A stretch of DNA of 52,676 nt from a virus (lineage: Duplodnaviria; Caudoviricetes). The position numbers were made by a program, and so were the translations under genes. Shown here piece after piece: positions 7,761 through 28,192 of the stretch (the stretch's first letter is position 1; each line of letters starts with the position of its first letter). The DNA lies in IMG/VR virus record IMGVR_UViG_3300043384_000025, positions 1 through 52,676 of that record. One strand, 5' to 3'. The notes under the pieces are model-generated. The model ran no database searches. It worked only from the letters and a program-made list of their open reading frames with translations, and was not told where the DNA came from.

Positions 7761-8283
7761 CCCAGTGGTCGGACTCAGAGTCCGTGTTACAGGCTCGGTG
7801 AGTGTATCGAGTGTGTATCGGGAATGCGCAACTGTTCTCCGGCCATCCCTTGGCTTGGAGTCCGGGTGGCACACGCTGTGTGCAGAATGCGCGGCAGCCG
7901 TTACACTGGGGGCCGACCTACGCTTGGATCGGGGGCTGCCAGTGTCGTCAAAGTCAGGCTTGGTATTCTCGACGCAGAGGCTCACGGTCATCATCAGCGA
8001 GCGACTCCGCCCAGAGCAGTCGCAGATCTGGGCCGGCGGCCGCATCGTCGTCGTCGGGCCAGGCCCAAGGGCAGCGGAGCGCGCCGAGTACGCGCTGCGA
8101 ACCTGGCGGCTCTGCGAACGGGCCACCGAGCTCGATGAAGCGGCGGGTCGGAAGGCCGCGACGCTGAGTCGTTGAATAGCTGACGTTCTGTAGTTCCCCC
8201 TGGAACAACAGCCGAACCTGACCAGTCCCCACTGGCAACGGCTCCGTTGTGTCCAGCACGCCCACAAGATTTGAGCCTGGCAC

Positions 8284-8345: not shown

Positions 8346-9230
8346 ATGAGTGGCGTCCAGAGCGACTATCGAGAGCAGCCTGGCGCGCACTACTCCACGC
8401 TCAAGGAACTGGGGCGCTCCGCTCGCCACTTCGCCTGGCTCGAGGCGCACGATCGCGAGCCGACCGCCGCCCTCGGCGTCGGGATCGCGACTCACCTCGC
8501 GGTGCTCGAGCCTGAGAAGTTCGCCGAGCGCGTGGTGATCTGGGGGCGCCAACTCGGCAGGCGCTCGGGGTCGATCTGGGCGAAGTTCAAGGGCTCCGCG
8601 GATCGGCGCGACCAGATCGTCCTGACCGAGGACGAGCACGACGAGGTGCTCGCGCTTGCTCGCGCGGTTCGTTCGAGCCCCCAGGCCAGGCCGCTGCTCA
8701 CCGACCCGAGCGGCGAGGCCGAGAAGGCGATCGCCTGGGTCGACGGCGAGACGGGGATCCAGTGCAAGGCCCGTCTCGACTGGGTGTGCGGCGCGGGAAT
8801 CGCAGACCTGAAAACCACGCGCGACGCGAGCCCCGACGGCTTCGCGCGCGAGTGCGCGCGCTACGGCTACCACAGGCAGGCTGCGTTCTACGTTGACGGC
8901 TACACCGCTGCTCAATGCCCGCGCGGAGGCTTGGTGTCCGCGACCCACCGGCAGGCGGCGTTCTCGATCATCGCCGTCGAGAAGGCACCGCCGTACGTCG
9001 TCCAGGTCTACCGCGTCGCCGGCGACGTGCTCGAGCTCGGCCGCGCGGAGATGCGGAGCTACCTGCGCCAGCTCGCTCAGCTGCAACGGCTCCCGCAGGA
9101 CCAATGGCCGGGCTACGCCGACGAGCCGCTCGACCTGTACCTGCCGCGGTGGGCGATGCCGCGGGAGGACGCGCTCGGCGACCTCGGGCTCGACGCGACT
9201 GGTCTCGACGACGCCACGAAGGAGGACTGA
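8346..9230 (+). CDS. PD-(D/E)XK exonuclease (ExoVIII/DUF3799-like)
   Basis: GIATHLAVLEPEKF, CKARLDW, IADLKTT, YGYHRQAAFY, IIAVEK, WPGY. Contains solo repeat S1 in frame. Confidence 0.88.
   Translation: MSGVQSDYREQPGAHYSTLKELGRSARHFAWLEAHDREPTAALGVGIATHLAVLEPEKFAERVVIWGRQLGRRSGSIWAKFKGSADRRDQIVLTEDEHDEVLALARAVRSSPQARPLLTDPSGEAEKAIAWVDGETGIQCKARLDWVCGAGIADLKTTRDASPDGFARECARYGYHRQAAFYVDGYTAAQCPRGGLVSATHRQAAFSIIAVEKAPPYVVQVYRVAGDVLELGRAEMRSYLRQLAQLQRLPQDQWPGYADEPLDLYLPRWAMPREDALGDLGLDATGLDDATKED
8909..8944 (+). repeat. Solo CRISPR repeat S1, in frame in the exonuclease gene
   Basis: TGCTCAATGCCCGCGCGGAGGCTTGGTGTCCGCGAC, 32/36 identical to the array consensus. Confidence 0.93.
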
Positions 9231-13401: not shown

Positions 13402-13976
13402 ACCGCAAGGGCAGAGAAGTGATCGAGACGAAGACCGAGGACCTGCTCGTCGTACTCGAAGAGGACGAGATCAACGAGCGCGCACGCAAGCTCGCCGCGA
13501 AACAGGGCGAGCTCGAGCACCAAATCGATGAAGGGCGCCGCATCCAGGGCGAGCAGGCCACGAGGCGCAAGGCCATCGAGGCGGAGATCAAGGGCCTCGG
13601 CGACGCCGTCCGCGAAGGGACGGAGCTGCGCCCGGTGGTCGTCGAGATCATCGCGAACTATTCGAAGGCCACCATCCAAGAGATCCGAGAGGACACGGGG
13701 AAGGTGATCATCGAGCGGGCGATGCGGGCCGACGAGCGGCAGATCGGGATCCCCATGAACGAGATCAAGAACGAGTCCCCGAAGGCGGTCGCAAAGCGGC
13801 TCTTCGCCGATGGCGTCCGCCCCGAGGACGTCGGGATCGAGCAGAGGGTCAGCGATGCCGCGGCGGCGGCGCACGTCGAGATCGCCGCGGTGCTCGAGGC
13901 GCTGGTCGACCTCGCCGAGGAGGCGGCCGCGAGGAAGGGCAAGCGCAAGGGCGGCGATGGCGAGGCGACGCCGTGA
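13398..13976 (+). CDS. Hypothetical protein
   Basis: GAGGAG RBS, strong GC3 bias, 192 aa. Confidence 0.7.
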   Translation: MNRKGREVIETKTEDLLVVLEEDEINERARKLAAKQGELEHQIDEGRRIQGEQATRRKAIEAEIKGLGDAVREGTELRPVVVEIIANYSKATIQEIREDTGKVIIERAMRADERQIGIPMNEIKNESPKAVAKRLFADGVRPEDVGIEQRVSDAAAAAHVEIAAVLEALVDLAEEAAARKGKRKGGDGEATP

Positions 13977-14587
13977 GCGCACGCATCGGCGCATGGTCGC
14001 AGACCTACACGGGCCGCCAATACTGGCCGCAGGACCCGCGCCCCGAGGACGTTGACCCGATCGACATCGCGCACGCCCTGTCGCTGCAATGTCGTTTCGG
14101 CGGCCACTGCAAGTGGCATTACTCGGTAGCGCAGCACTCGCTTCTTGTGGCCGAACTCCTCGGCTCAATGCCCGCGCAGGGGCCTGGTACCTGCGACTGG
14201 GGCTTGCTGCACGATGCCTCCGAGGCATACATGGTCGACCTCCCGAGGCCGCTGAAGAACCACTCGGCGATGGGCCTCGAATACAAGCGGATCGAAGCAC
14301 TGAACATGAGAGCGATCTGGGCGCGCTTCGGGCTCGTCGGACCGCAACCCGAGGCTGTCGCAATCGCCGACGAAGTGGCGTTGGCGATGGAGTTTCGCGA
14401 CGTCATGGGGTTGCCTCCGGATGCGCTGAATCTCCAGCAGGCGCCGGCGTCCCCCATCATCACTCGCATGAGCCCGGAGGCTTGCGAGGCGATCTTCCTC
14501 AATACCCTCGGCGTGCTCCTCGAAGCCCGAAGGGACGAGCAGGCGGGGTGGTCTTCGGCACATCTCCTCGCGCTCGAAGAACGATGA
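13973..14587 (+). CDS. HD-domain phosphohydrolase (YfdR/YfbR-like 5'-deoxynucleotidase)
   Basis: DIAHALS..CRFGGH..YSVAQHS...LLHDASEAY..DLPRPLK. Contains solo repeat S2 in frame. Confidence 0.9.
   Translation: MSARIGAWSQTYTGRQYWPQDPRPEDVDPIDIAHALSLQCRFGGHCKWHYSVAQHSLLVAELLGSMPAQGPGTCDWGLLHDASEAYMVDLPRPLKNHSAMGLEYKRIEALNMRAIWARFGLVGPQPEAVAIADEVALAMEFRDVMGLPPDALNLQQAPASPIITRMSPEACEAIFLNTLGVLLEARRDEQAGWSSAHLLALEER
14162..14197 (+). repeat. Solo CRISPR repeat S2, in frame in the HD hydrolase gene
   Basis: GGCTCAATGCCCGCGCAGGGGCCTGGTACCTGCGAC; stem CGCAGG/CCTGCG fully compensated. Confidence 0.85.
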
Positions 14588-14712
14588 AATGCCAACCGGG
14601 CCCCTGAGCTCGGCGCGGAGCACGTGCGGTCTCCGTGGCGACAGAACAACCGCACGCTGGGCCCGCCGGCGGCCGAGTCACCGCCGGCGGGCGCCATCCA
14701 AAGGAGGTCCAA

Positions 14713-14997
14713 ATGGCAACGCTGGTCATTCACATGCTGGACGGGACGGTCGTTCGAAAAACCGTTCCGGTCGTCGAAGCTGTCGCGATACATCTACTGC
14801 GCGCCATGCTCCGGATGCCGCCCGGCGCGCGAGTCGGGCCGGTCTCGTCGAGCGAGGTCTTGCTCCTCGCCGTGCACTCCCTGACCGCGTGTCCCCAGTG
14901 CGGCGCGGACGGCTTTGGCAACCCGGGCGGATGCCAGGTGTGCGCGCTCGGGCGAAAGGTTGTCGAGACGTTCAAGAATGGGAAGGCGTCGGCATAA
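14713..14997 (+). CDS. Small Zn-finger protein upstream of cas12
   Basis: AAGGAGG RBS; CPQC...CQVC; 94 aa. Confidence 0.7.
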   Translation: MATLVIHMLDGTVVRKTVPVVEAVAIHLLRAMLRMPPGARVGPVSSSEVLLLAVHSLTACPQCGADGFGNPGGCQVCALGRKVVETFKNGKASA

Positions 14998-15005
14998 AGG
15001 CGGCC

Positions 15006-15041
15006 ATATCAATGCCCGCGCGGAGGCCTGGTATCCGCGAC
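15006..15041 (+). repeat. Solo CRISPR repeat S3 in the cas12 5' region
   Basis: ATATCAATGCCCGCGCGGAGGCCTGGTATCCGCGAC, ending 42 nt before the cas12 ATG. Confidence 0.93.
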
Positions 15042-15083
15042 TGCGCGCTCGGGACGTCGAGGATCCGAAGAGGAGGCATTGCA

Positions 15084-16790
15084 ATGATCGTCTACAAATA
15101 TCGCATCTACCCAGACGAATCCGATCCGATGCTGCGCCAGATCCTGATGAGGGGAGAACGCTTCGCGCGGGTGATGACCGAGATCCATCAGCGTTACAAA
15201 GAGGCGGCTGCCGATCGCAAGCTTGTCGCGGTCGAGCAGCGCCGGGACTTCGCCTTGCTGGCCAAGTCGAGATTCCTCGCCGAGGCTAGGGACGCCAGGG
15301 CCCATTCCGGGCTCCACGGTAGCACCTGTAGCGCGATATCTGCCGCGCGCGACCAGGCCGCGCGTACGACCTCGCGCAAGTGCCTGCTCGCCAAGAAGGG
15401 CGGGGTGTGCCGCTGCGGCGAAGAGCATGCCGAGGGTACGCGCATTTGGATGCAATTCGAGCCACGGGTGGCAATCGTGGGGTGCCCGTTCTGCGGCCGA
15501 GGCCTTCGCATGCCGATCTCCGGAGAAGGGGGCGTCATCGGCGGGCAGATTCGCCACGACCGGCGATATTGCACGACAGACGAGATCCTCGGCGGCGAGT
15601 CTAGCGCCGTGCGCATTACTGGGACGGGGCGCGACCGCGTCGTACATCGTCGCGTGGCCGCCGCCGACGGAGAACCGGTATGGCTCTCGGCGCCGATGGT
15701 CTACCATCGCCCTCTGCCTCCTGGAGAGGGGGCGCGAGATGCTAGATTCGTGCGGCGTCGCATCGGCCATCACGCCGAGTGGCACGTGCTATTAACGATC
15801 GACTCCGAGTCATCGAGGCTTCCGAGCCCGACAAAGGGGTCCGTCGGCATCGATCTCGGCTGGCGACAGATGGACACCGGCGAGCTCCGAGTCGCAGCGT
15901 GGCGTGACGACACCGGCGCAGAGGGAGAGGTCCGCATCCCGGCGCAACTCGTTCGAGACATGCGCTCTGTCGACGAATTGCAGTCGACCAGGTCGACCAA
16001 CCTGGACGCGCTCCGAGACGCCCTGGTACTCGCCCGTGAGAGCTGGCCCGCGGGACTCTCCGAGGCGACTCGCTCGCTCCATCAATGGCGGTCACCAGAT
16101 CGGTTCGTGAGGCTCATGTACCGCATTCGCCGGGAAGCGCCAGGCGTCGCCGGAGCGGGCGCACTACGCGACTGGTATCGACGCCTGGACGACACCGGCC
16201 TGGCCCACGGAGAGAGCCATCTCAGAGAATGGGCGGAGCACCAGCGGGAGCATTGCCTGCTACGGAGAAAGGAGTTCTTTCGCTTGCAGGCACGGCAGTT
16301 CGCGGCGTACCGCGAAATGCATTGCGAGGACCTCGACCTATCCAAGTTGGCCAGACTCGCGGACGACCCCGAAGAGCGCCTCGCCAGGAAGGCGAGGCAT
16401 AACCGGATGCTTGCCGCGCCGAGCTACCTGCGCGCCGACATATTGTCATGCGTCGAACGGGCCGGCGGGCTGGTGGTCAAAGTGGACCCGGCGTACACCA
16501 CGCAGAAGTGCCCGATGTGCGGCCTCGTCTCCAGGTTGGACCCGATGCCGATCATACATACCTGCCCCGAGTGCGGTGTGACGCTCGACCAAGACCTCAA
16601 GGCAGCCGAAAACATTCGGCGAGCGCCGAGGTGCTCGCCGCCGAAGGGACCCCGCTCGCAGCCGCAAGATGCCGAGGTCGCAAAGCTTTCCGCATGGGCG
16701 CGCAGAAAGGCAGCCAAGACAGCACGAGAAGCGGAGGACCGCTCGCAAGGCGACTTGCAAGTGGTCGACAACATTGACATCGCAAAGTGA
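15084..16790 (+). CDS. cas12m: Compact type V CRISPR effector, Cas12m-like (V-M/V-U1, TnpB-derived), 568 aa
   Basis: AGGAGG RBS; N-terminal VYKYRI; MVYHRPLP; RuvC-I VGIDLGWR (D257); RuvC-II CEDLDL (E415); AAPSYLR; TTQKCPMCG...CPECG; RuvC-III DQDLKAAENI (D504). Stop is 3 nt from the first repeat. Subtype assigned from remembered motifs, not from a search. Confidence 0.85.
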   Translation: MIVYKYRIYPDESDPMLRQILMRGERFARVMTEIHQRYKEAAADRKLVAVEQRRDFALLAKSRFLAEARDARAHSGLHGSTCSAISAARDQAARTTSRKCLLAKKGGVCRCGEEHAEGTRIWMQFEPRVAIVGCPFCGRGLRMPISGEGGVIGGQIRHDRRYCTTDEILGGESSAVRITGTGRDRVVHRRVAAADGEPVWLSAPMVYHRPLPPGEGARDARFVRRRIGHHAEWHVLLTIDSESSRLPSPTKGSVGIDLGWRQMDTGELRVAAWRDDTGAEGEVRIPAQLVRDMRSVDELQSTRSTNLDALRDALVLARESWPAGLSEATRSLHQWRSPDRFVRLMYRIRREAPGVAGAGALRDWYRRLDDTGLAHGESHLREWAEHQREHCLLRRKEFFRLQARQFAAYREMHCEDLDLSKLARLADDPEERLARKARHNRMLAAPSYLRADILSCVERAGGLVVKVDPAYTTQKCPMCGLVSRLDPMPIIHTCPECGVTLDQDLKAAENIRRAPRCSPPKGPRSQPQDAEVAKLSAWARRKAAKTAREAEDRSQGDLQVVDNIDIAK

Positions 16791-16793
16791 CCC

Positions 16794-17390
16794 CTCTCAA
16801 TGCCTGCGCGGAGGCTTGGTATCCGCGACCTCTCCGAGGCGGTGCGCTTCGACCCGAAGGGCTTCTCTCAATGCCTGCGCGGAGGCTTGGTATCCGCGAC
16901 GAGCTGGTCTCCGTGCATGCAGCCGTCACCACGCACTCTCAATGCCTGCGCGGAGGCTTGGTATCCGCGACGAGGCAGATCATGACTCGCATACCAGCCT
17001 ATCTCCCTCTCAATGCCTGCGCGGAGGCTTGGTATCCGCGACTTGATGCTCTCGAGCATTTCGCGCGAGGGGGCGCGCTCTCAATGCCTGCGCGGAGGCT
17101 TGGTATCCGCGACTGCCAGCTCGGGACGATGCCCGCGAAGAGGCTCGCCCGTCCCCTTTCAATGCCTGCGGAGAGGCCTTGTATCTCCGACCTCGAGCGC
17201 CCGGTCGAGCTCGGCGCGGGTGGCCGGCTTTCAATGCCTGCGGAGAGGCTTGGTGTCTCCGACCGTGGGCTCGTGCTCGTCGCGCCGCCGCAATCTCGAG
17301 CTCTCAATGCCTGCGCAGAGGCTTTGTTTCTGCGACGCGCGGATTCTCCTATTACTCTCAATGCCTGCGAAGAGGCTTTGTATCTTCGAC
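16794..17390 (+). CRISPR. CRISPR array, 9 repeats of 36 nt and 8 spacers
   Basis: Consensus CTCTCAATGCCTGCGCGGAGGCTTGGTATCCGCGAC. Starts at 16794, 16865, 16936, 17007, 17078 (identical) and 17156, 17228, 17301, 17355 (variants). Spacers are 35, 35, 35, 35, 42, 36, 37 and 18 nt. Confidence 0.97.
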
Positions 17391-17394
17391 TCGC

Positions 17395-17426
17395 GCCGCC
17401 CTCCCGCACCGGGCGGCATTCTCTTT
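17395..17426 (+). terminator. Putative terminator hairpin after the array
   Basis: GCCGCCC-N9-GGGCGGC followed by ATTCTCTTT (weak U tract). Confidence 0.45.
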
Positions 17427-17459
17427 GATATCTTCGCCGACGACCGCAGGGAGTGATAG

Positions 17460-17774
17460 ATGGACATCGAGTGCGTCATCAGAGAAGCGGTTCGTACCAG
17501 CATCCGCGAGGAGCTGCGCGCCGCCCTGGGCGAACTCAAGGCCTCGACGGCGCCAGCGGCCTACCTCACGATCCGCGAGGCCGCGGAGCTCGCCAGGGTC
17601 TCGTGCGACTCGCTCCGGAGGTGGATCGGCGCCGGCCGCCTCACCGCTCGGCGTGCCGGCAGGGAGTTGCGGATCGAGCGCTCGGCTCTCGAGGCGTTCC
17701 TCTCGGAGAACATCGCGGCCCCCAAACCGTCGCCAGATCAGTGCTTCGATCGGATGTTCGGCGGCAAGCGCTGA
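17460..17774 (+). CDS. xis: Excisionase / HTH_17 DNA-binding protein
   Basis: YLTIREAAELARVSCDSLRRWIGAGRLTARRAGRELRI; directly upstream of the integrase. Confidence 0.85.
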   Translation: MDIECVIREAVRTSIREELRAALGELKASTAPAAYLTIREAAELARVSCDSLRRWIGAGRLTARRAGRELRIERSALEAFLSENIAAPKPSPDQCFDRMFGGKR

Positions 17775-17822
17775 CAGAGGCCGGCGCGGCGGGGTAGTGT
17801 CCCACGAGCTACACAGAGGCCG

Positions 17823-17858
17823 CTCTCAATGCCTGCGAAGAGGCTTGGTATCTTCGAC
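17823..17858 (+). repeat. Solo CRISPR repeat S4, abutting the integrase RBS
   Basis: CTCTCAATGCCTGCGAAGAGGCTTGGTATCTTCGAC, then GAGGAGGCAGC-ATG. Confidence 0.95.
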
Positions 17859-17869
17859 GAGGAGGCAGC

Positions 17870-19624
17870 ATGGGGCTGTACGCGAGAGGCACGCGGCTTT
17901 GGTTTTCGTGGACCGACGCGAACGGGAAGCGGCACCGCGAGCCGAGCGACTTCGAGGTCGGCCAGGAAGCGATGGCCGCGAAGGTGCTCGCGCGCGGGCA
18001 GGCGAAGATCGCCGCCGAGAAGAAGGCGCTGGCCGGCGGGCCGCGCGTGCACACCGAGAAGACTTCGCTGACCGACTACGTGCTGGGCGCACCTGGTGGC
18101 TGGCTCGAGGTCCGCCGGGCACGCAAGCCCGGTGTCGCTGCGAGCGAGCAGAGCATGTTCGAGTGCCACATCAGCCCGTTCCTCGGCCAGATGGCGCTGG
18201 GAGAGATCCGGCCTCGGAACGCGCGCGCGTTCATCTGGCACATGCGCGAGAAGATCAGCGAGGAGACCGGCCGGACGTTCGGAGGCAGGACGATTCGATC
18301 GATCGCCGGTCTGCTCGGGGCCATCCTCGACGATGCCGCGAGCGACGAGATCATCCCGATCAGCCCGTACAAGCTCAAGCGCGGGGATCTCCCGCCGAAG
18401 ATCGACGTCGATCCTCTGTGGCGGCAGCTCGCGTTCTTCGAGCGCGAGGAGATCGAGCAGTTGATCGGCGACCCGCGGATCCCGGAGGATCGCCAGGTGG
18501 TCTACGCCCTGGGGTTCATGACCGGCATGCGGCCGGGCGAGGTCGCTGCCCTGCGATGGGAGCGCTACCTGGCGAACGAGCAGCCGCTTGGGAAGCTGGT
18601 GGTCGCGACGAGCTTCTGCGCGAAGACGCACAAGGAGAGGCCGACCACCAAGACGAGCTCGACGAAGCTCGTGCCCGTGCACGCGTCGCTCGCGTCGATC
18701 TTGGCGAAGTGGAAGCTCGGCGGGTGGGCGCGGCTCATGGGCACTGACCCGCGGCCCAGGGACCTGCTCGTGCCGTCACGGCGGCGCGGGGACTTCCGCA
18801 ACCCCAACGACATGACGAACTCGCTCGAGGTCGACCTCGATGCGCTGGGGCTGCGCCGCAGGACGGCGCGCGACTGGAGGCCGAGCTTCATGACGCTGGT
18901 GCGGGCGGACGGGGCGATCGACGAGATCGCCAGGATGATCACGCATGGGGGGCAAAAGGACACCGTCGGCGGTTACCTTCGATTCCCATGGGCGACCGTG
19001 TGCCGCGAGTTGGCGAAGTTGCGAATCGAGCTCCGGGGGGAGGGGCTCGTGCTACCTTTTCGGCAGGCGGTCGGGGGGGACGGAGTCACGATGGAGGATG
19101 GGGTCTCAATGCCCGCGGAGAGGCCTGGTATCTCCGACATATCACACGCGGGGGAATCTGAGGCATTGGCACAGCGTTGTCACAGCCCGGAAAAACAGCC
19201 CTGTTTACAGCTACCTGGGGAGGTACACGGTTTGAGCCGGAACCAAAGTGCGGGTGTGGGGCCAGGCAGACTCACGCCGGCTAACGCCGCAGAATCACAG
19301 AGTGTCGCGGCGCGGCAATCGGCGTCAAGCGGGCTCGCGCCGACTCCCGTTGTGACAATGTGCCAATCAGGCGGCCGCACCAAGCCCGCCGTCGAGCCCG
19401 TCGTCGACCCCGTCGCCGACCCGTGGGACGAAGCCGCTACACGTTTTGTAGCGGCCGTAGCGGCCGCCCGGGACCCCGTCGGCGAAGCCCTCCTCGCCGC
19501 CCAGGATGCCTGGAGCGGGGCTCGCGACCGCATCGGCCTCCGAGTGCGCCTGCTCGAGATCGACCGCCTGCTCGACCGCATGGCCCTTGCCGAGCGGCCC
19601 TTGCCGCCGGGGGGCAAGCCTTGA
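17870..19624 (+). CDS. int: Tyrosine integrase with long C-terminal extension
   Basis: TGMRPGEVAALRW, TKT, VPVH, RDWR (variant of HxxR), ITH, GGY. Confidence 0.9.
   Translation: MGLYARGTRLWFSWTDANGKRHREPSDFEVGQEAMAAKVLARGQAKIAAEKKALAGGPRVHTEKTSLTDYVLGAPGGWLEVRRARKPGVAASEQSMFECHISPFLGQMALGEIRPRNARAFIWHMREKISEETGRTFGGRTIRSIAGLLGAILDDAASDEIIPISPYKLKRGDLPPKIDVDPLWRQLAFFEREEIEQLIGDPRIPEDRQVVYALGFMTGMRPGEVAALRWERYLANEQPLGKLVVATSFCAKTHKERPTTKTSSTKLVPVHASLASILAKWKLGGWARLMGTDPRPRDLLVPSRRRGDFRNPNDMTNSLEVDLDALGLRRRTARDWRPSFMTLVRADGAIDEIARMITHGGQKDTVGGYLRFPWATVCRELAKLRIELRGEGLVLPFRQAVGGDGVTMEDGVSMPAERPGISDISHAGESEALAQRCHSPEKQPCLQLPGEVHGLSRNQSAGVGPGRLTPANAAESQSVAARQSASSGLAPTPVVTMCQSGGRTKPAVEPVVDPVADPWDEAATRFVAAVAAARDPVGEALLAAQDAWSGARDRIGLRVRLLEIDRLLDRMALAERPLPPGGKP
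19103..19138 (+). repeat. Solo CRISPR repeat S5, in frame in the integrase C-terminal extension
   Basis: GTCTCAATGCCCGCGGAGAGGCCTGGTATCTCCGAC; stem CGGAGA/TCTCCG. Confidence 0.92.
19165..19367. other. Putative attP inside the integrase gene
   Basis: Left arm-like repeats TTGGCACA and TTGTCACA (19166-19184) are inverted relative to TGTGACAA and TGTGCCAA (19351-19366); lower GC. Core not identified. Confidence 0.55.
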
Positions 19625-21306: not shown

Positions 21307-21342
21307 AAAGAGGAACCCACCCAAGCTCGCGCCGGGTGGGCT
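21307..21342 (-). terminator. Intrinsic terminator between convergent operons
   Basis: CCCACCC-N11-GGGTGGG followed by TTCCTCTTT on the minus strand. Confidence 0.6.
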
Positions 21343-21378
21343 GTCGGAGATACCAAGCCTCTCCGCGGGCATCGCGCA
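21343..21378 (-). repeat. Solo CRISPR repeat S7 (minus strand, 3' UTR of the leftward operon)
   Basis: Reverse complement is TGCGCGATGCCCGCGGAGAGGCTTGGTATCTCCGAC; first 6 nt diverged, both stems intact. Confidence 0.88.
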
Positions 21379-21397: not shown

Positions 21398-21712
21398 CTA
21401 CTTCGCCGGATCGGCCGCCGCCACCTGTTGCGCGCCGCTGGCCCTGGGCTCGACGCCGAGCGCTTCCCGCGCACGCTGGCAGAGCACGACCGAGGAGGCG
21501 TGATCGCTGCCGGTGAGGCGCTTCCATTCCTTGGCTACCTCATCGGTCCAATACCGGCCATCGTGAAAGAGCAGCACCGCTCGGAGGGCGTCGCCCATGG
21601 CATGGACGGTGGTCTCGGCCTGCCGGGCCAACTCGATCAGCTGCTCGTTCTGCTCATGCAGTAGGCGCCAATCCCGCTCGATCGTCCGCAACCGTTCTTC
21701 GATGATGTTCAC
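21398..21712 (-). CDS. Hypothetical protein
   Basis: GTG after GGAGG, coupled to the upstream stop. Confidence 0.6.
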   Translation of the reverse strand: MNIIEERLRTIERDWRLLHEQNEQLIELARQAETTVHAMGDALRAVLLFHDGRYWTDEVAKEWKRLTGSDHASSVVLCQRAREALGVEPRASGAQQVAAADPAK

Positions 21713-22302
21713 TTGCGCCTCCAGACCGAGAGGCCGTCGTGGATCCCGGACCACGTCGGGATCCGGCGGGCGGCCAGCGTCTCGAACCGCGCCTCGAGCA
21801 GCTCGTCGAACCGAACGTCGGCGCAGCACCCGCCGACCTCGCCGACGTAGATCACTCGCTTGCCCTCGTAGACTTCGAGCGCTTCGGCCGCCCATGGCAT
21901 GGCGTACGACGGCCAGATCAGCATCAGCGTCCGCTCGGGGTACACCTTCGCCGCGGTCGCAGCGTCCATCTCGACGACCGGGTGCCACTGGCGCTCGAAC
22001 CGCACGGTGCCGATCGGCGTCCGGCTCGAGGGCACCGGGTGGAGGTCGGTGGCGATGATGTCCACGCCGAGCGCTTCCAGCTCGTACGCCCAGTAGCCTG
22101 CGCCCGCGCCTACCTCGATGATCGGCCCATACCTCGCGACAGCGAGCAGCGCGTCCTCATCGGGGATCGCGAAGCCGAAGCCGCGCACGAACCTGGACCT
22201 GAGATCGATGACCCGCTCGAGATCGAAGAGCGGGTAGCCGGACAGGAAGCCGTCTCCCGCCTTCACGCCAGCGTCTCGCAAAGCCTGCTCGTACAGGGTC
22301 AA
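21709..22302 (-). CDS. Class I SAM-dependent methyltransferase-like protein
   Basis: IIEVGAGAGYWA, DIIATD, LMLIWP, VIYVGE. Confidence 0.75.
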   Translation of the reverse strand: MTLYEQALRDAGVKAGDGFLSGYPLFDLERVIDLRSRFVRGFGFAIPDEDALLAVARYGPIIEVGAGAGYWAYELEALGVDIIATDLHPVPSSRTPIGTVRFERQWHPVVEMDAATAAKVYPERTLMLIWPSYAMPWAAEALEVYEGKRVIYVGEVGGCCADVRFDELLEARFETLAARRIPTWSGIHDGLSVWRRK

Positions 22303-23048
22303 TTGACGTCCTCCCTAGACCGCTCCGGCAACAGCCAAGCGAAGCGGCCCTTGAACTTGTCGCTCCCGCGCGGGAAAGCCTGGATGGTGGGGGCCCCGAA
22401 GGACTTTACTTCCCCCTCGCCCCGCCGGCGCCGCTCGTAGGGCAGGACGATCACACGCGCCCCATCCGAGTGCTCCATCTCGGAGATGATCGCCTCGGTG
22501 GCGAGAGGGTCGTCCTCGAGCTTCCTCGCGTGGTCCTTGCGCTGCTCCCCGTCCGCCAGGTTGAGATGCCAGGCGTCGGCCTGCTTCACGTAGGCGACCG
22601 CGCCGCTCCGGCGCAGCATCGCCCGTATCTGGATCGCAACGAGGTCCATGGGCGTCAAATTCTGACTCTCGCAAACGGCCTGAACGAACGTCTCGTTCAT
22701 TCGCTCCAGCGAGTAGCCAGGATGCTGGCGCGCGGCGGCCGCAGCAACCTCGAACCCGGCGCGGCCTTCATCGTCGAGCATGTTGTCACGAATGATGCCA
22801 GCGAGCGCATCCGGGTGGTAGTTGATTGGCAGGCACATTATGACGAGACCGCCGTCCGTCGGCGCCCGCCCGGGTTGCTGGAGCGGACGAAGCTTGCCGC
22901 GAAAGTCGGGCGGGACAAGATCGAAGTAAGTCAGCATCCAAACCAATGTCGCCAGGAATCCATCTTCGCGGAGGACGCGCTTGCTCGCCTCGAAGATCGA
23001 GTCGTGCCACTCTGTGAGGAACTCCTCGCCCAGCTCGTGGCGGCTCAC
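22299..23048 (-). CDS. Hypothetical protein
   Basis: 249 aa coupled ORF with globular composition. Confidence 0.7.
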   Translation of the reverse strand: MSRHELGEEFLTEWHDSIFEASKRVLREDGFLATLVWMLTYFDLVPPDFRGKLRPLQQPGRAPTDGGLVIMCLPINYHPDALAGIIRDNMLDDEGRAGFEVAAAAARQHPGYSLERMNETFVQAVCESQNLTPMDLVAIQIRAMLRRSGAVAYVKQADAWHLNLADGEQRKDHARKLEDDPLATEAIISEMEHSDGARVIVLPYERRRRGEGEVKSFGAPTIQAFPRGSDKFKGRFAWLLPERSREDVN

Positions 23049-26140: not shown

Positions 26141-28192
26141 CTAGCGTTGCCTGATGGGACTCACGCGCTTCGATTCCGATCGAAGCGAGATCCTCGAGCC
26201 GGAGCGCAGCGAATACGTCGGTTGGCCGCGCAGGTGGCGCATGGCATTCACCTCCCGCAGCGAGGGTGCGACGGCCACGACGAGCACTGCGGCCGACGGC
26301 GCCGGCGCGCTAGGAGGGTTCGAGGGGGCGCCGGCAGTGTGAGCGGCCGCGCTCACGCCGCCGCTCATGGCAATCCGGGTCGTCAGCGCGAGAGCCGCCT
26401 GAGAGCTGGACATCGCGCCCAGGGACGTCATTGCGCTTGTTTGCCCGGTCAGGTCTGCCGCGGCAACGCACACAGCGGTCGCGGCACCCGCGAGCGAGAT
26501 CGCCGTCGAGAGAGTCCCGGCGATAGCGCTCGGCCGGCTCGACTCGAGCGAGATCGCCGTGGTGAGGGAGGCCGAAGCGGAGCTCTGCGCGACGACCCCG
26601 CCGGCCAGGTGGATCTCGGTGACGAGCGAGGCCGTCGCGGCGCTGGACGCGGTCGTGGTGCCAGTGAGCGGGATCGCCGTGCTGAGCGAGGCACCCGGCG
26701 ATGCTGCGGCGAAGACTGCGTCCGCGAGCGGGAGAGCCGTGGTGAGCGATGCCGCGGCGGAGCTCGACTCCAACACCGCGCCGGCGAGCGGGATCGCGGT
26801 GGTGAGGGCGGCGCCGGTCGAGGTTTGCGCGACCGCGGTGCCGACGACGGGGATCGCCGTGGTGAGCACCGCCACGGCCAAGCTCGGGACGGCAACCGAC
26901 GCGGCGAGTTGGACCGACGTGGTGAGCGCGGCCAACGCGGAGCTCGGTGCCGTGACAACGCCCACGAGCGAGACGGCTGTGCTCAGCGCCGCGCCTGACG
27001 TGGCTTGTACGGTCGCAGCGCCCGCGACCGGAATCCCCGTGCTCAGCGCGGCCGACGCGCTCGCTTGCGCGGCATCCGCACCGCCGAACCGGATCGCCGT
27101 GGATAGCGCAGCCGCGGCGGAGCTCGTCGCCACGACCGCGGCGGCGATGGGGATCGCCGTGCTCAGCGCACAGGCCGCGGAGCTTGGCGCAACGACCCCG
27201 ACCGCCAGCTGAACCGCCGTGGAGAGCGCGCCACCTGCCACAGCCGAGGTCGCGGCCGAGCCAACCAGGGCGGCCGGGACCGAGAGCGCCGCCGACGCGA
27301 CGCCCGACGAAGCGGCCCCGCCCGCGAACCGGATCGCGGTGACGAGACTGGCGGCCGCCGAAGCAGGTGCGACCACCGCGCCCGCGAGCGCGACGGCCGT
27401 GCTCAGGGTGCCACCCGGCGAGCTCGACGCGGCGACTACGTCCGCAAGCGGGATCGCCGTGCTCAGTGCGCCGTGGGACGAGGCCTGCGCCGCGACGCCG
27501 CCGGCGACGGGAATCGATGTGGTGAGCGCGGCCGTCGCCGAAGCTTGTGAGGTCGCCGCGCCCGCGAGTTGGATCGCAGTGGTGAGGGCCGCGCCTGCAC
27601 CCGCCGAGGCGACGATCGCGCCGGCCAAGGCAGCGGGTACCGACAGCGCGCCAGCGGGTGACCCTTGCGCCGCCGCGGTTCCGGCGAGTTGGATCGCCGT
27701 CGAGAGGCCCGCGGCTGCGGTGCTCGGCGCCGTCGCCGCGCCGGCGAGCGGGATCCCGGTCGAGAGCGCGCCGCTCGCCGTGGCTGTGGTGGCAGGCGCG
27801 CCTGCGAGCTGGATCGCCGTCCCGAGCGCGCCTGACGTGGCGGACGACGCGGTGCTCGCCCCGACGAGTTGGACGGCTGTCGACAGCGCCGCCGCTGGGG
27901 TGCTCGTGCCGGCCGCGGCGCCGGCGAGCGCGATCTGGGTCGTGAGCGCCGCGCCAGCCTGGGCGAGCGCCACCGCGGGGCCCACCAGTGCGACCGAGGT
28001 AGAGAGCGCGCCCGCGACCGAGCAGGCGGTCGCGGCGCCCCCGGCGAGCGAGGTGTCCGCCGACGCCGACTGATTGCGGTCGGCTGCGCTGGTCCACGGC
28101 GCCGACGACGGCACCATTAGGGCCCGTTGCTGCCCGAACGGCGTCGCATTGGCGACCGCGTTGAGCGCTACCGTGGAGTGCAGCCAGACCAT
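26141..28192 (-). CDS. Ala/Thr/Ser-rich tandem-repeat protein (fibre-like)
   Basis: About 25 units of about 22 aa (LSTAIPLAGAAxAxSSAxAA). Confidence 0.75.
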   Translation of the reverse strand: MVWLHSTVALNAVANATPFGQQRALMVPSSAPWTSAADRNQSASADTSLAGGAATACSVAGALSTSVALVGPAVALAQAGAALTTQIALAGAAAGTSTPAAALSTAVQLVGASTASSATSGALGTAIQLAGAPATTATASGALSTGIPLAGAATAPSTAAAGLSTAIQLAGTAAAQGSPAGALSVPAALAGAIVASAGAGAALTTAIQLAGAATSQASATAALTTSIPVAGGVAAQASSHGALSTAIPLADVVAASSSPGGTLSTAVALAGAVVAPASAAASLVTAIRFAGGAASSGVASAALSVPAALVGSAATSAVAGGALSTAVQLAVGVVAPSSAACALSTAIPIAAAVVATSSAAAALSTAIRFGGADAAQASASAALSTGIPVAGAATVQATSGAALSTAVSLVGVVTAPSSALAALTTSVQLAASVAVPSLAVAVLTTAIPVVGTAVAQTSTGAALTTAIPLAGAVLESSSAAASLTTALPLADAVFAAASPGASLSTAIPLTGTTTASSAATASLVTEIHLAGGVVAQSSASASLTTAISLESSRPSAIAGTLSTAISLAGAATAVCVAAADLTGQTSAMTSLGAMSSSQAALALTTRIAMSGGVSAAAHTAGAPSNPPSAPAPSAAVLVVAVAPSLREVNAMRHLRGQPTYSLRSGSRISLRSESKRVSPIRQR

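Follow-up and report, generated by a model that had tools for sequence, protein, structure and literature searches.

A CRISPR repeat within the reading frame of a phage HD gene

The virus record IMGVR_UViG_3300043384_000025 was analysed over its whole length of 52,676 bases (hereafter the window; 67.6% G+C, estimated completeness 80%). One stretch of it carries a gene for an HD-domain phosphohydrolase, a small gene, a cas12m-like gene and a CRISPR array, which is co-directional with cas12m and begins 3 nt past its stop codon (Table 1). Inside the HD gene lies S2, an intact copy of the array's 36-nt repeat in sense orientation. S2 is solitary: no regularly spaced repeats flank it, and the closest other copy is 844 nt off. 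The sequence TGGGGCTTGCTGCACGATGCC (14198-14218) stands directly 3' of it. The open reading frame (ORF) translates as ...LLG-SMPAQGPGTCD-WGLLHDA..., the first named peptide being encoded by the repeat and the motif opening at W76. A first-pass annotation of this DNA had placed the repeat immediately before the HD motif codons, read it as an enzyme loop and taken the residues that follow as the most conserved of the family; the translation and the alignment described below bear this out.

Searching the window with a degenerate form of the repeat gives 16 matches, and 100 shuffles give none. Because that pattern had been designed with S2 in view, we built an independent covariance model, R2, from 14 array repeats and no solitary copies (5 repeats from the window and 9 from four other records). 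R2 scores S2 at 51.7 bits (rough E 2e-13), compared with 56.8-59.9 bits for the array repeats of the window and 12.9 bits for the best non-repeat site. All 16 copies in the window score between 44.6 and 59.9 bits, with no decay in score toward the next site at 12.9. The stem (6 bp) is paired in 234 of 234 cells across 26 copies from seven records, and four of its six pairs have changed on both sides; 0 of 500 shuffles match the covariation score, and controls slid along the alignment are paired in 34-56%. S2 itself differs from the array consensus by two compensated pair changes. The 5' GCC could form three more pairs with the GGC of the loop, but these are the same in every copy and are therefore uninformative for or against pairing. 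The S2 hairpin is present in the minimum-energy fold, with ordinary z-scores (-0.4 and -0.8), and a promoter and terminator scan returned nothing that exceeds shuffles. A chance resemblance is rejected by the shuffle counts, the stem covariation and the R2 scores. S2 is a true member of this phage's own type V-M repeat family.

The effector gene starts at the ATG at 15084, with GAGGAGG upstream. In phmmer searches its product matches solved Cas12m chains (E 3.2e-33 for 23vw_A, then 4.7e-23 and 5.8e-14), and it carries a Cas12f1-like TNB domain (PF07282, Pfam E 5.2e-15). Its length of 568 aa, TNB zinc ribbon and Cas12m similarity are those of Cas12m (type V-M, size about 570-615 aa), and its RuvC motifs, read by eye, are D-E-D. 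By similarity the effector is a Cas12m relative; that family is reported to bind DNA without cutting it, and by analogy the same may hold here. The first-pass annotation speaks of cas12; the product is Cas12m-like and not a generic cutting Cas12.

The HD protein (P0001) matches phrog_318, annotated as deoxyribonucleoside 5' monophosphate phosphatase (E 9.4e-52), and falls under the cut-off of the Pfam YfbR-like family (17.3 vs 25.9 bits). W76, G77, L78, L79, H80 and D81 are invariant in 31 of 31 homologs in our alignment A1, and the protein keeps all 31 invariant columns, H34, H55, H80, D81 and D133 among them. The loop between the preceding helix and W76 has 13 residues here vs 8 in the closest homologs (P0002 and P0003, 69-70% identical), as the first-pass annotation had anticipated when it proposed a replaced loop. 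Read by eye, the residue preceding W76 is D here and L, M, A or V in 30 of 30 other homologs. In this alignment, the repeat takes the place of the whole variable loop and ends at the first invariant codon. An AlphaFold2 model of the protein (mean predicted local distance difference test score of 93) has residues 65-72 as coil and residues 73-78 as a helix leading to the HD pair, and the stretch encoded by S2 is predicted to be a surface loop.

The nearest allele in DNA comes from L143, a 2,493-nt metagenome contig with 91.4% and 90.8% identity to the window on the two flanks of the HD gene and 77.6% within it. Its loop is of the short form and lacks the repeat, and already contains GCGCAG, the 5' arm used in S2. 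Past the small gene, where the window has a further repeat copy at 15006 and then cas12m, L143 has unrelated genes. L143 is thus without S2 and without cas12m at this locus, the contig being too short to exclude cas12m elsewhere. The first-pass annotation had named a close homolog without cas12 but with the same loop as the finding that would count against it; the loop of L143 is instead shorter and different, an outcome that favors the proposal. Measured against the L143 allele, residues 1-62 and residues 76-160 have ratios of nonsynonymous to synonymous substitution rates of 0.18 and 0.32, respectively, and, taken with the alignment and the structural model, the HD gene looks like a working enzyme gene. 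Searches with the HD protein in IMG/VR and GTDB genomes found identities of about 50% at most. The closest homologs of the HD protein and of the exonuclease listed in Table 1 share one 61,472-nt contig; a word-based protein search for Cas12m gave only six matches, the best 50% identical, and says nothing on cas12m in that contig.

Table 1. Positions of the genes and repeat copies under discussion, in window coordinates
Feature	Position	Strand	Basis
S1, solo repeat, in frame in PD-(D/E)XK exonuclease gene (8346-9230)	8909-8944	+	11-residue insertion vs closest homolog
HD-domain phosphohydrolase gene (204 aa, P0001), host of S2	13973-14587	+	phrog_318 match
S2, solo repeat, in frame, residues 65-75 (SMPAQGPGTCD)	14162-14197	+	array-only model, 51.7 bits
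Nominal S2 guide, the HD gene's own sequence; first 21 nt encode WGLLHDA	14198-14233	+	position downstream of S2
Small gene, 94 aa, in the interval from HD gene to cas12m	14713-14997	+	L143 homology stops at 14995
Solo repeat, 9 nt past small-gene stop, 42 nt ahead of cas12m ATG	15006-15041	+	repeat match
cas12m-like gene, 568 aa	15084-16790	+	solved Cas12m chains; Pfam TNB domain
CRISPR array, 9 repeats	16794-17390	+	5 identical plus 4 variants, stems of the latter compensated
Solo repeat abutting integrase GAGGAGG/ATG (17870)	17823-17858	+	repeat match
Integrase gene	17870-19624	+	GAGGAGG ahead of ATG at 17870
Solo repeat in frame in C-terminal part of integrase ORF (17870-19624)	19103-19138	+	repeat match
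Solo repeat, 5 nt past integrase stop codon	19630-19665	+	repeat match
Solo repeat downstream of leftward gene 21709-22314, end of leftward block	21343-21378	-	repeat match

Solo repeats in the window, in near-identical strains and in a second phage

The window holds seven such copies outside the array (solos): three in frame within genes, three at gene boundaries and one at the end of an operon. All seven are intact and co-directional with the local genes. The solo at 21343 has a G+C hairpin and a T-rich tail at 21307-21342, seen by eye; the hairpin is not in the list of the terminator scan. An 18-nt match to the repeat loop and 3' arm, without the 5' arm, lies at 7956-7974; no other copy in the window looks decayed. 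The stretch of 43 nt that separates the 15006 solo from the cas12m ATG (15042-15084) resembles an eroded second copy of the small gene's 3' end (14941-14997), with an anchored 12-nt exact match at 14941; this likeness could come from duplication of a target at the edge of the cassette or mark a target for self-regulation.

Because the HD allele of L143 (77.6%) is far more diverged than its flanks (about 91%), the identity profile marks the HD region as a mosaic module. S2 was considered as the exchange junction and rejected, L143 identity being similar on both sides (0.87 before and 0.78-0.85 after). Ahead of its HD gene, L143 also has about 205 nt (409-618), apparently a small gene, that are missing in the window (13977-13985).

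We further compared DNA contigs from four metagenome studies; the low cover of the cas12m region in three of them (X2-X4) is not usable as evidence, and a search for RNA runs that cover 13900-17900 gave none. A 639-nt contig of X3 covers 13821-14453 with 12 mismatches and 6 gap letters, and a near-identical strain in that study seems to keep S2. In relatives from X3 and X4, 19072-19159 (88 nt, with the integrase solo inside) are replaced by 40 other letters, a difference of 48 that therefore keeps the reading frame. Contigs of X3 also have extra repeat copies where the window has none, for instance between 14698 and 14765, and one of them runs to 12641, then through a repeat and 4 letters, and then from 12630 onward, which amounts to a 12-nt duplication at the insert. 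Since the X3 and X4 contigs differ in the presence and place of solos, these elements are gained, lost and moved among near-identical strains. In one X3 relative, 28 letters and a repeat copy stand in place of 14699-14764, which comprise the small gene's ribosome-binding site and its first 17 codons; by our own count, an internal ATG of that repeat is in frame with the remaining gene.

The repeat pattern is present in 8 IMG/VR stretches and 4 genome stretches, and 6 of the 10 other records searched have Cas12m homologs at 32-36% identity; a search of IMG/VR with Cas12m peptide words gave no match. Two bacterial metagenome-assembled genomes with the repeat (7.5 and 4.4 Mb, 11.9 Mb in total) have small arrays only and no dispersed solos. 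Solos do occur in G004, a complete 103.5-kb virus with cas12m and its own array (L060 1709-2304, minus strand). The array repeat of G004 is of a different type, with another loop and another 5' part, and scores 21.7 bits with R2; five of the solos in this phage are of the type found in the window and one is of its own type. Two solos are in frame in an 865-residue ORF, and another is located close to where a head-protease ORF begins. The other three each follow a stop codon and precede the next ribosome-binding site: one is behind the portal gene, one behind the small gene that comes next, and one between two virion genes; in two of these three, AGGAGG or GGAGGA stands at +1 after the repeat. 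The own-type solo (L162 7704-7738) is located between two virion genes, directly ahead of GGAGGA. Solos D and E of G004 have a T-A pair where 26 of 26 aligned copies have G-C. In-frame intragenic placement of solos thus recurs in a second cas12m phage. The two solos in the 865-residue ORF (L059 1751-1810 and 3440-3499) are followed by about 24 nt of similar sequence and encode similar peptides, so the duplicated unit exceeds the repeat.

Possible roles of S2

The explanation that we rank first, with a probability of roughly 0.35, is that S2 is a working type V-M repeat in the sense strand of the mRNA, which gives Cas12m a guide against the insert-free alleles of kin phages. Because the repeat carries its hairpin at the 3' end, a guide would lie downstream of it. 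Given also that the array is co-directional with cas12m, the CRISPR RNA (crRNA) should consist of a repeat handle and then the guide, which makes the WGLLHDA codons the predicted guide of S2. This geometry is sound for Cas12; the guide function itself is putative.

In one study, Cas12m is described as trimming its own pre-crRNA within the repeat, without its RuvC site, as requiring T- or C-rich 5' protospacer-adjacent motifs (PAMs) such as TTN, and as binding DNA without cutting it (PMC11013384). From this we infer a possible course of events. The early operon would be transcribed through S2, and Cas12m would bind the S2 hairpin, trim the RNA within the repeat and so acquire a crRNA that uses the ~20 nt behind the repeat, the WGLLHDA codons, as its guide. 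GAC, the end of the repeat, occupies the PAM position, which would exempt the DNA of the phage itself. A Leu codon (CTN or TTR, i.e., YTN) immediately precedes the motif in 97 of 115 HD homolog loci, retrieved via peptide patterns and hence a biased sample. An insert-free HD allele would present this codon at the PAM place, where it resembles the T/C-rich PAMs of Cas12m and may make the allele bindable. The payoff that we rank first is allele-specific silencing, with no cutting, of closely related phages that co-infect the cell or reside in it. S2 itself was probably formed by recombination, as a patch taken from an array unit with a spacer matching this site; such an origin would account for a repeat that stops right at the W codon. 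In engineered systems, crRNAs are cut out of mRNAs by Cas12a, and a strand bias is known for dCas12a. A more doubtful extension is a genome-wide, adaptation-free form of kin exclusion, in which guides hard-wired in reading frames, supplemented by the repeats at gene boundaries, would silence insert-free relatives.

Several results weigh against a guide role for S2. The first-pass annotation had proposed that a guide from here would hit homologs at a site that cannot easily mutate. While the geometry fits, none of the 115 HD homolog loci has fewer than two mismatches to the guide in its first 20 nt, the best being L017 with two (positions 7 and 9). The L143 allele has four, at positions 6, 7, 12 and 15, all synonymous, so the conserved peptide does not block escape and the supposed immutability does not extend to the DNA. 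The same annotation had suggested reading the bases ahead of the motif for a PAM; these are a Leu codon in most homolog loci and GAC here, and protospacer searches with the spacers found none from which the PAM could be fixed. The junction pattern of the S2 type has 0 matches elsewhere in IMG/VR. The other in-gene solos do not stand ahead of sequence kept in the nearest relatives: relative to the closest two homologs (81-82% identical), the 12 codons after S1 have both an indel and substitutions, and alleles without the 19103 solo have the first 21 nt of its guide replaced too. The five window-type solos of G004 are unlike the array repeat of that phage. Further, several solos directly precede ribosome-binding sites, which would suit a cis-acting RNA role.

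Wider searches for targets gave little. The array had a single 31-nt match among GenBank phages (E 0.2), and a genome search at the level of the order turned up nothing beyond low-complexity, G+C-rich stretches that match one spacer and a single related array. When the 16 guides of the window and 51 guides from other records were compared with all fetched loci, only self matches or matches between duplicate records were found. The S2 guide has no anchored match of at least 9 nt elsewhere in the window. Self-targets in trans for the 16 guides number 37, against a shuffled mean of 19.2 and maximum of 46, and are not above shuffles.

The positions beside ribosome-binding sites lead to a second explanation, which is possible though on the whole unlikely: the solos could be sites at which Cas12m processes or occupies the phage's own polycistronic mRNAs, with any guide role incidental. 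A cut at S2 would then turn HD expression off and leave a protein-capped 5' end upstream of cas12m, and Cas12m bound beside a ribosome-binding site would control how the gene that follows, such as the integrase or cas12m itself, is translated. The 17823 solo ends at the GAGGAGG/ATG of the integrase, the 15006 solo is in the cas12m leader, the 19630 solo starts 5 nt past a stop codon, and three G004 solos stand between a stop codon and a ribosome-binding site; all solos are sense-oriented. The reported ability of Cas12m to trim RNA in the repeat without the RuvC site is also consistent with such a role (PMC11013384). However, this adjacency may reflect tolerance and not function, as any tolerated insert in a short intergenic gap would fall beside a ribosome-binding site. 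A cis-acting element would also leave the end of S2 exactly at an invariant W codon unexplained, offers no reason to keep a repeat in a coding region where cleavage destroys the message, and would consume one Cas12m molecule per processing event.

S2 could also be a recombination scar without present function, formed when a repeat and its matching spacer were copied from CRISPR arrays into the homologous phage gene. Such a scar might be kept for PAM removal, as an escape from a rival or host Cas12m or from an own spacer, or might just be recent and tolerated. The inserts are never a clean 36 nt (S2 adds 15 nt net, S1 adds 27 nt net, and at 19103 there are 88 nt for 40), and the changed residues at S1 are bunched in the 12 codons after the repeat. 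The differences in solos among near-identical strains, with the 12-nt duplication at an X3 insert, point the same way, as do the likeness of the 43 nt behind the 15006 solo to the small-gene 3' end, including the 12-nt exact match at 14941, and the presence of GCGCAG in the ancestral-type loop of L143. Yet a history of this kind would not readily account for seven of seven solos being intact and in sense orientation, with no intermediate decayed copies in the window, or for compensated stem changes, among them a pair seen solely in G004 solos D and E. No current array spacer matches the sequence downstream of any solo, and replacing 36 nt would be a much harder route of escape than altering a synonymous site. 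We regard a functionless scar, too, as a doubtful account of S2.

Least probable is an RNA decoy, in which solos in abundant phage mRNAs would load a Cas12m of the same repeat type, belonging to a host or rival, with guides useless against the phage and so dilute its real ones: viral solitary repeat units are described as RNA anti-CRISPRs, including against type V-A (PMC10651486), and five G004 solos resemble the window-type repeat and not G004's own, but the solos of the window match its own array, with cas12m 0.9 kb away, so that the phage's own effector would be soaked up, and the units described in that study are intergenic, have their own promoter and are unlinked to cas genes.

Comparison with known systems and features of the array

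S2 and the guide role that we rank first for it have partial precedents. Like the solitary repeat units (SRUs) that act as RNA anti-CRISPRs (Racrs), S2 is a lone viral repeat outside an array that keeps its hairpin and is presumably bound and processed by its cognate Cas protein (PMC10651486). Those units are intergenic, promoter-driven, unlinked to cas genes and mimic host repeats, whereas S2 is within a gene and 0.9 kb from the phage's own cas12m and array; it is thus neither intergenic nor unlinked to cas, and the scan for promoters gave none beyond shuffles. Indeed, the SRU pipeline used intragenic matches to set its false-positive threshold (PMC10651486). The mini-CRISPR arrays of archaeal viruses are likewise virus-carried repeat-spacer units and are thought to exclude relatives, but they are non-coding and have acquired spacers, unlike S2, whose spacer is the phage's own coding sequence and whose repeat is translated (PMC6858448).

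The crRNA-like (cr-like) RNAs are standalone repeats near cas genes, and the 15006-15041 solo is the closest to this class (bioRxiv 10.1101/2023.03.03.530964). Their guides partly pair with promoters of cas or cargo genes in trans, whereas, as noted, the S2 guide has no anchored match in the window at that length; that study, too, counted repeat-like matches in protein-coding genes as background. The type V-M locus of a myxophage resembles ours in combining Cas12m with an 8-spacer array, without adaptation genes or protospacers, and the portion of that report available to us makes no mention of solo or in-gene repeats (bioRxiv 10.64898/2026.09.14.751636). A literature search, with supplements and most subscription papers outside its scope, turned up no account of repeats lying in frame within genes next to a viral cas gene. 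Solitary viral CRISPR repeats are known; what is unusual here is the in-frame, intragenic placement beside a phage-borne Cas12m.

Inteins and homing introns insert at highly conserved sites of conserved genes, and the first-pass annotation had likened S2 to them. Unlike these elements, S2 stays in the RNA and in the protein as a loop and encodes no endonuclease, and synonymous changes defeat recognition through a 20-nt guide. The relatives of the effector are reported to bind and not to cut DNA (PMC11013384), so no copying of S2 into empty alleles is expected and the analogy breaks down.

Solitary viral repeats have so far been known as intergenic only, with intragenic matches treated as noise. 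If solos load Cas12m, viruses without adaptation genes could derive guides from their own genes, and such loci would be a natural example of crRNAs cut out of mRNAs, with a simple rule for telling self from kin. It would also follow that repeat searches that mask coding regions miss a class of elements, and in-frame crRNA units could offer Cas12m tools a compact layout.

The repeats of the array are not uniform: the first five are identical, and each of the last four is a variant with a stem of its own that is nevertheless fully compensated. The eighth repeat has the same 30-nt core, letter for letter, as the array repeats in G003, G005 and G008, three further IMG/VR records. This identity and the heterogeneous stems suggest that the array of this phage may have been assembled via recombination and not by adaptation. 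The fifth "spacer" (17114-17155) is 42 nt long and contains a truncated repeat, matching 17 of 18 nt of the 5' half, preceded by a 14-nt stretch that resembles the start of the sequence after the 15006 solo (12 of 14 nt). Downstream of the last array repeat, at 17391-17426, a G+C hairpin and then a T-rich tail can be made out by eye, a structure absent from the list of a simple terminator scan. Farther along the window, 26475-28028 consists of G+C-rich direct repeats with a 60-nt period (17 copies, 61-73% alike), and is probably a gene for a repetitive structural protein.

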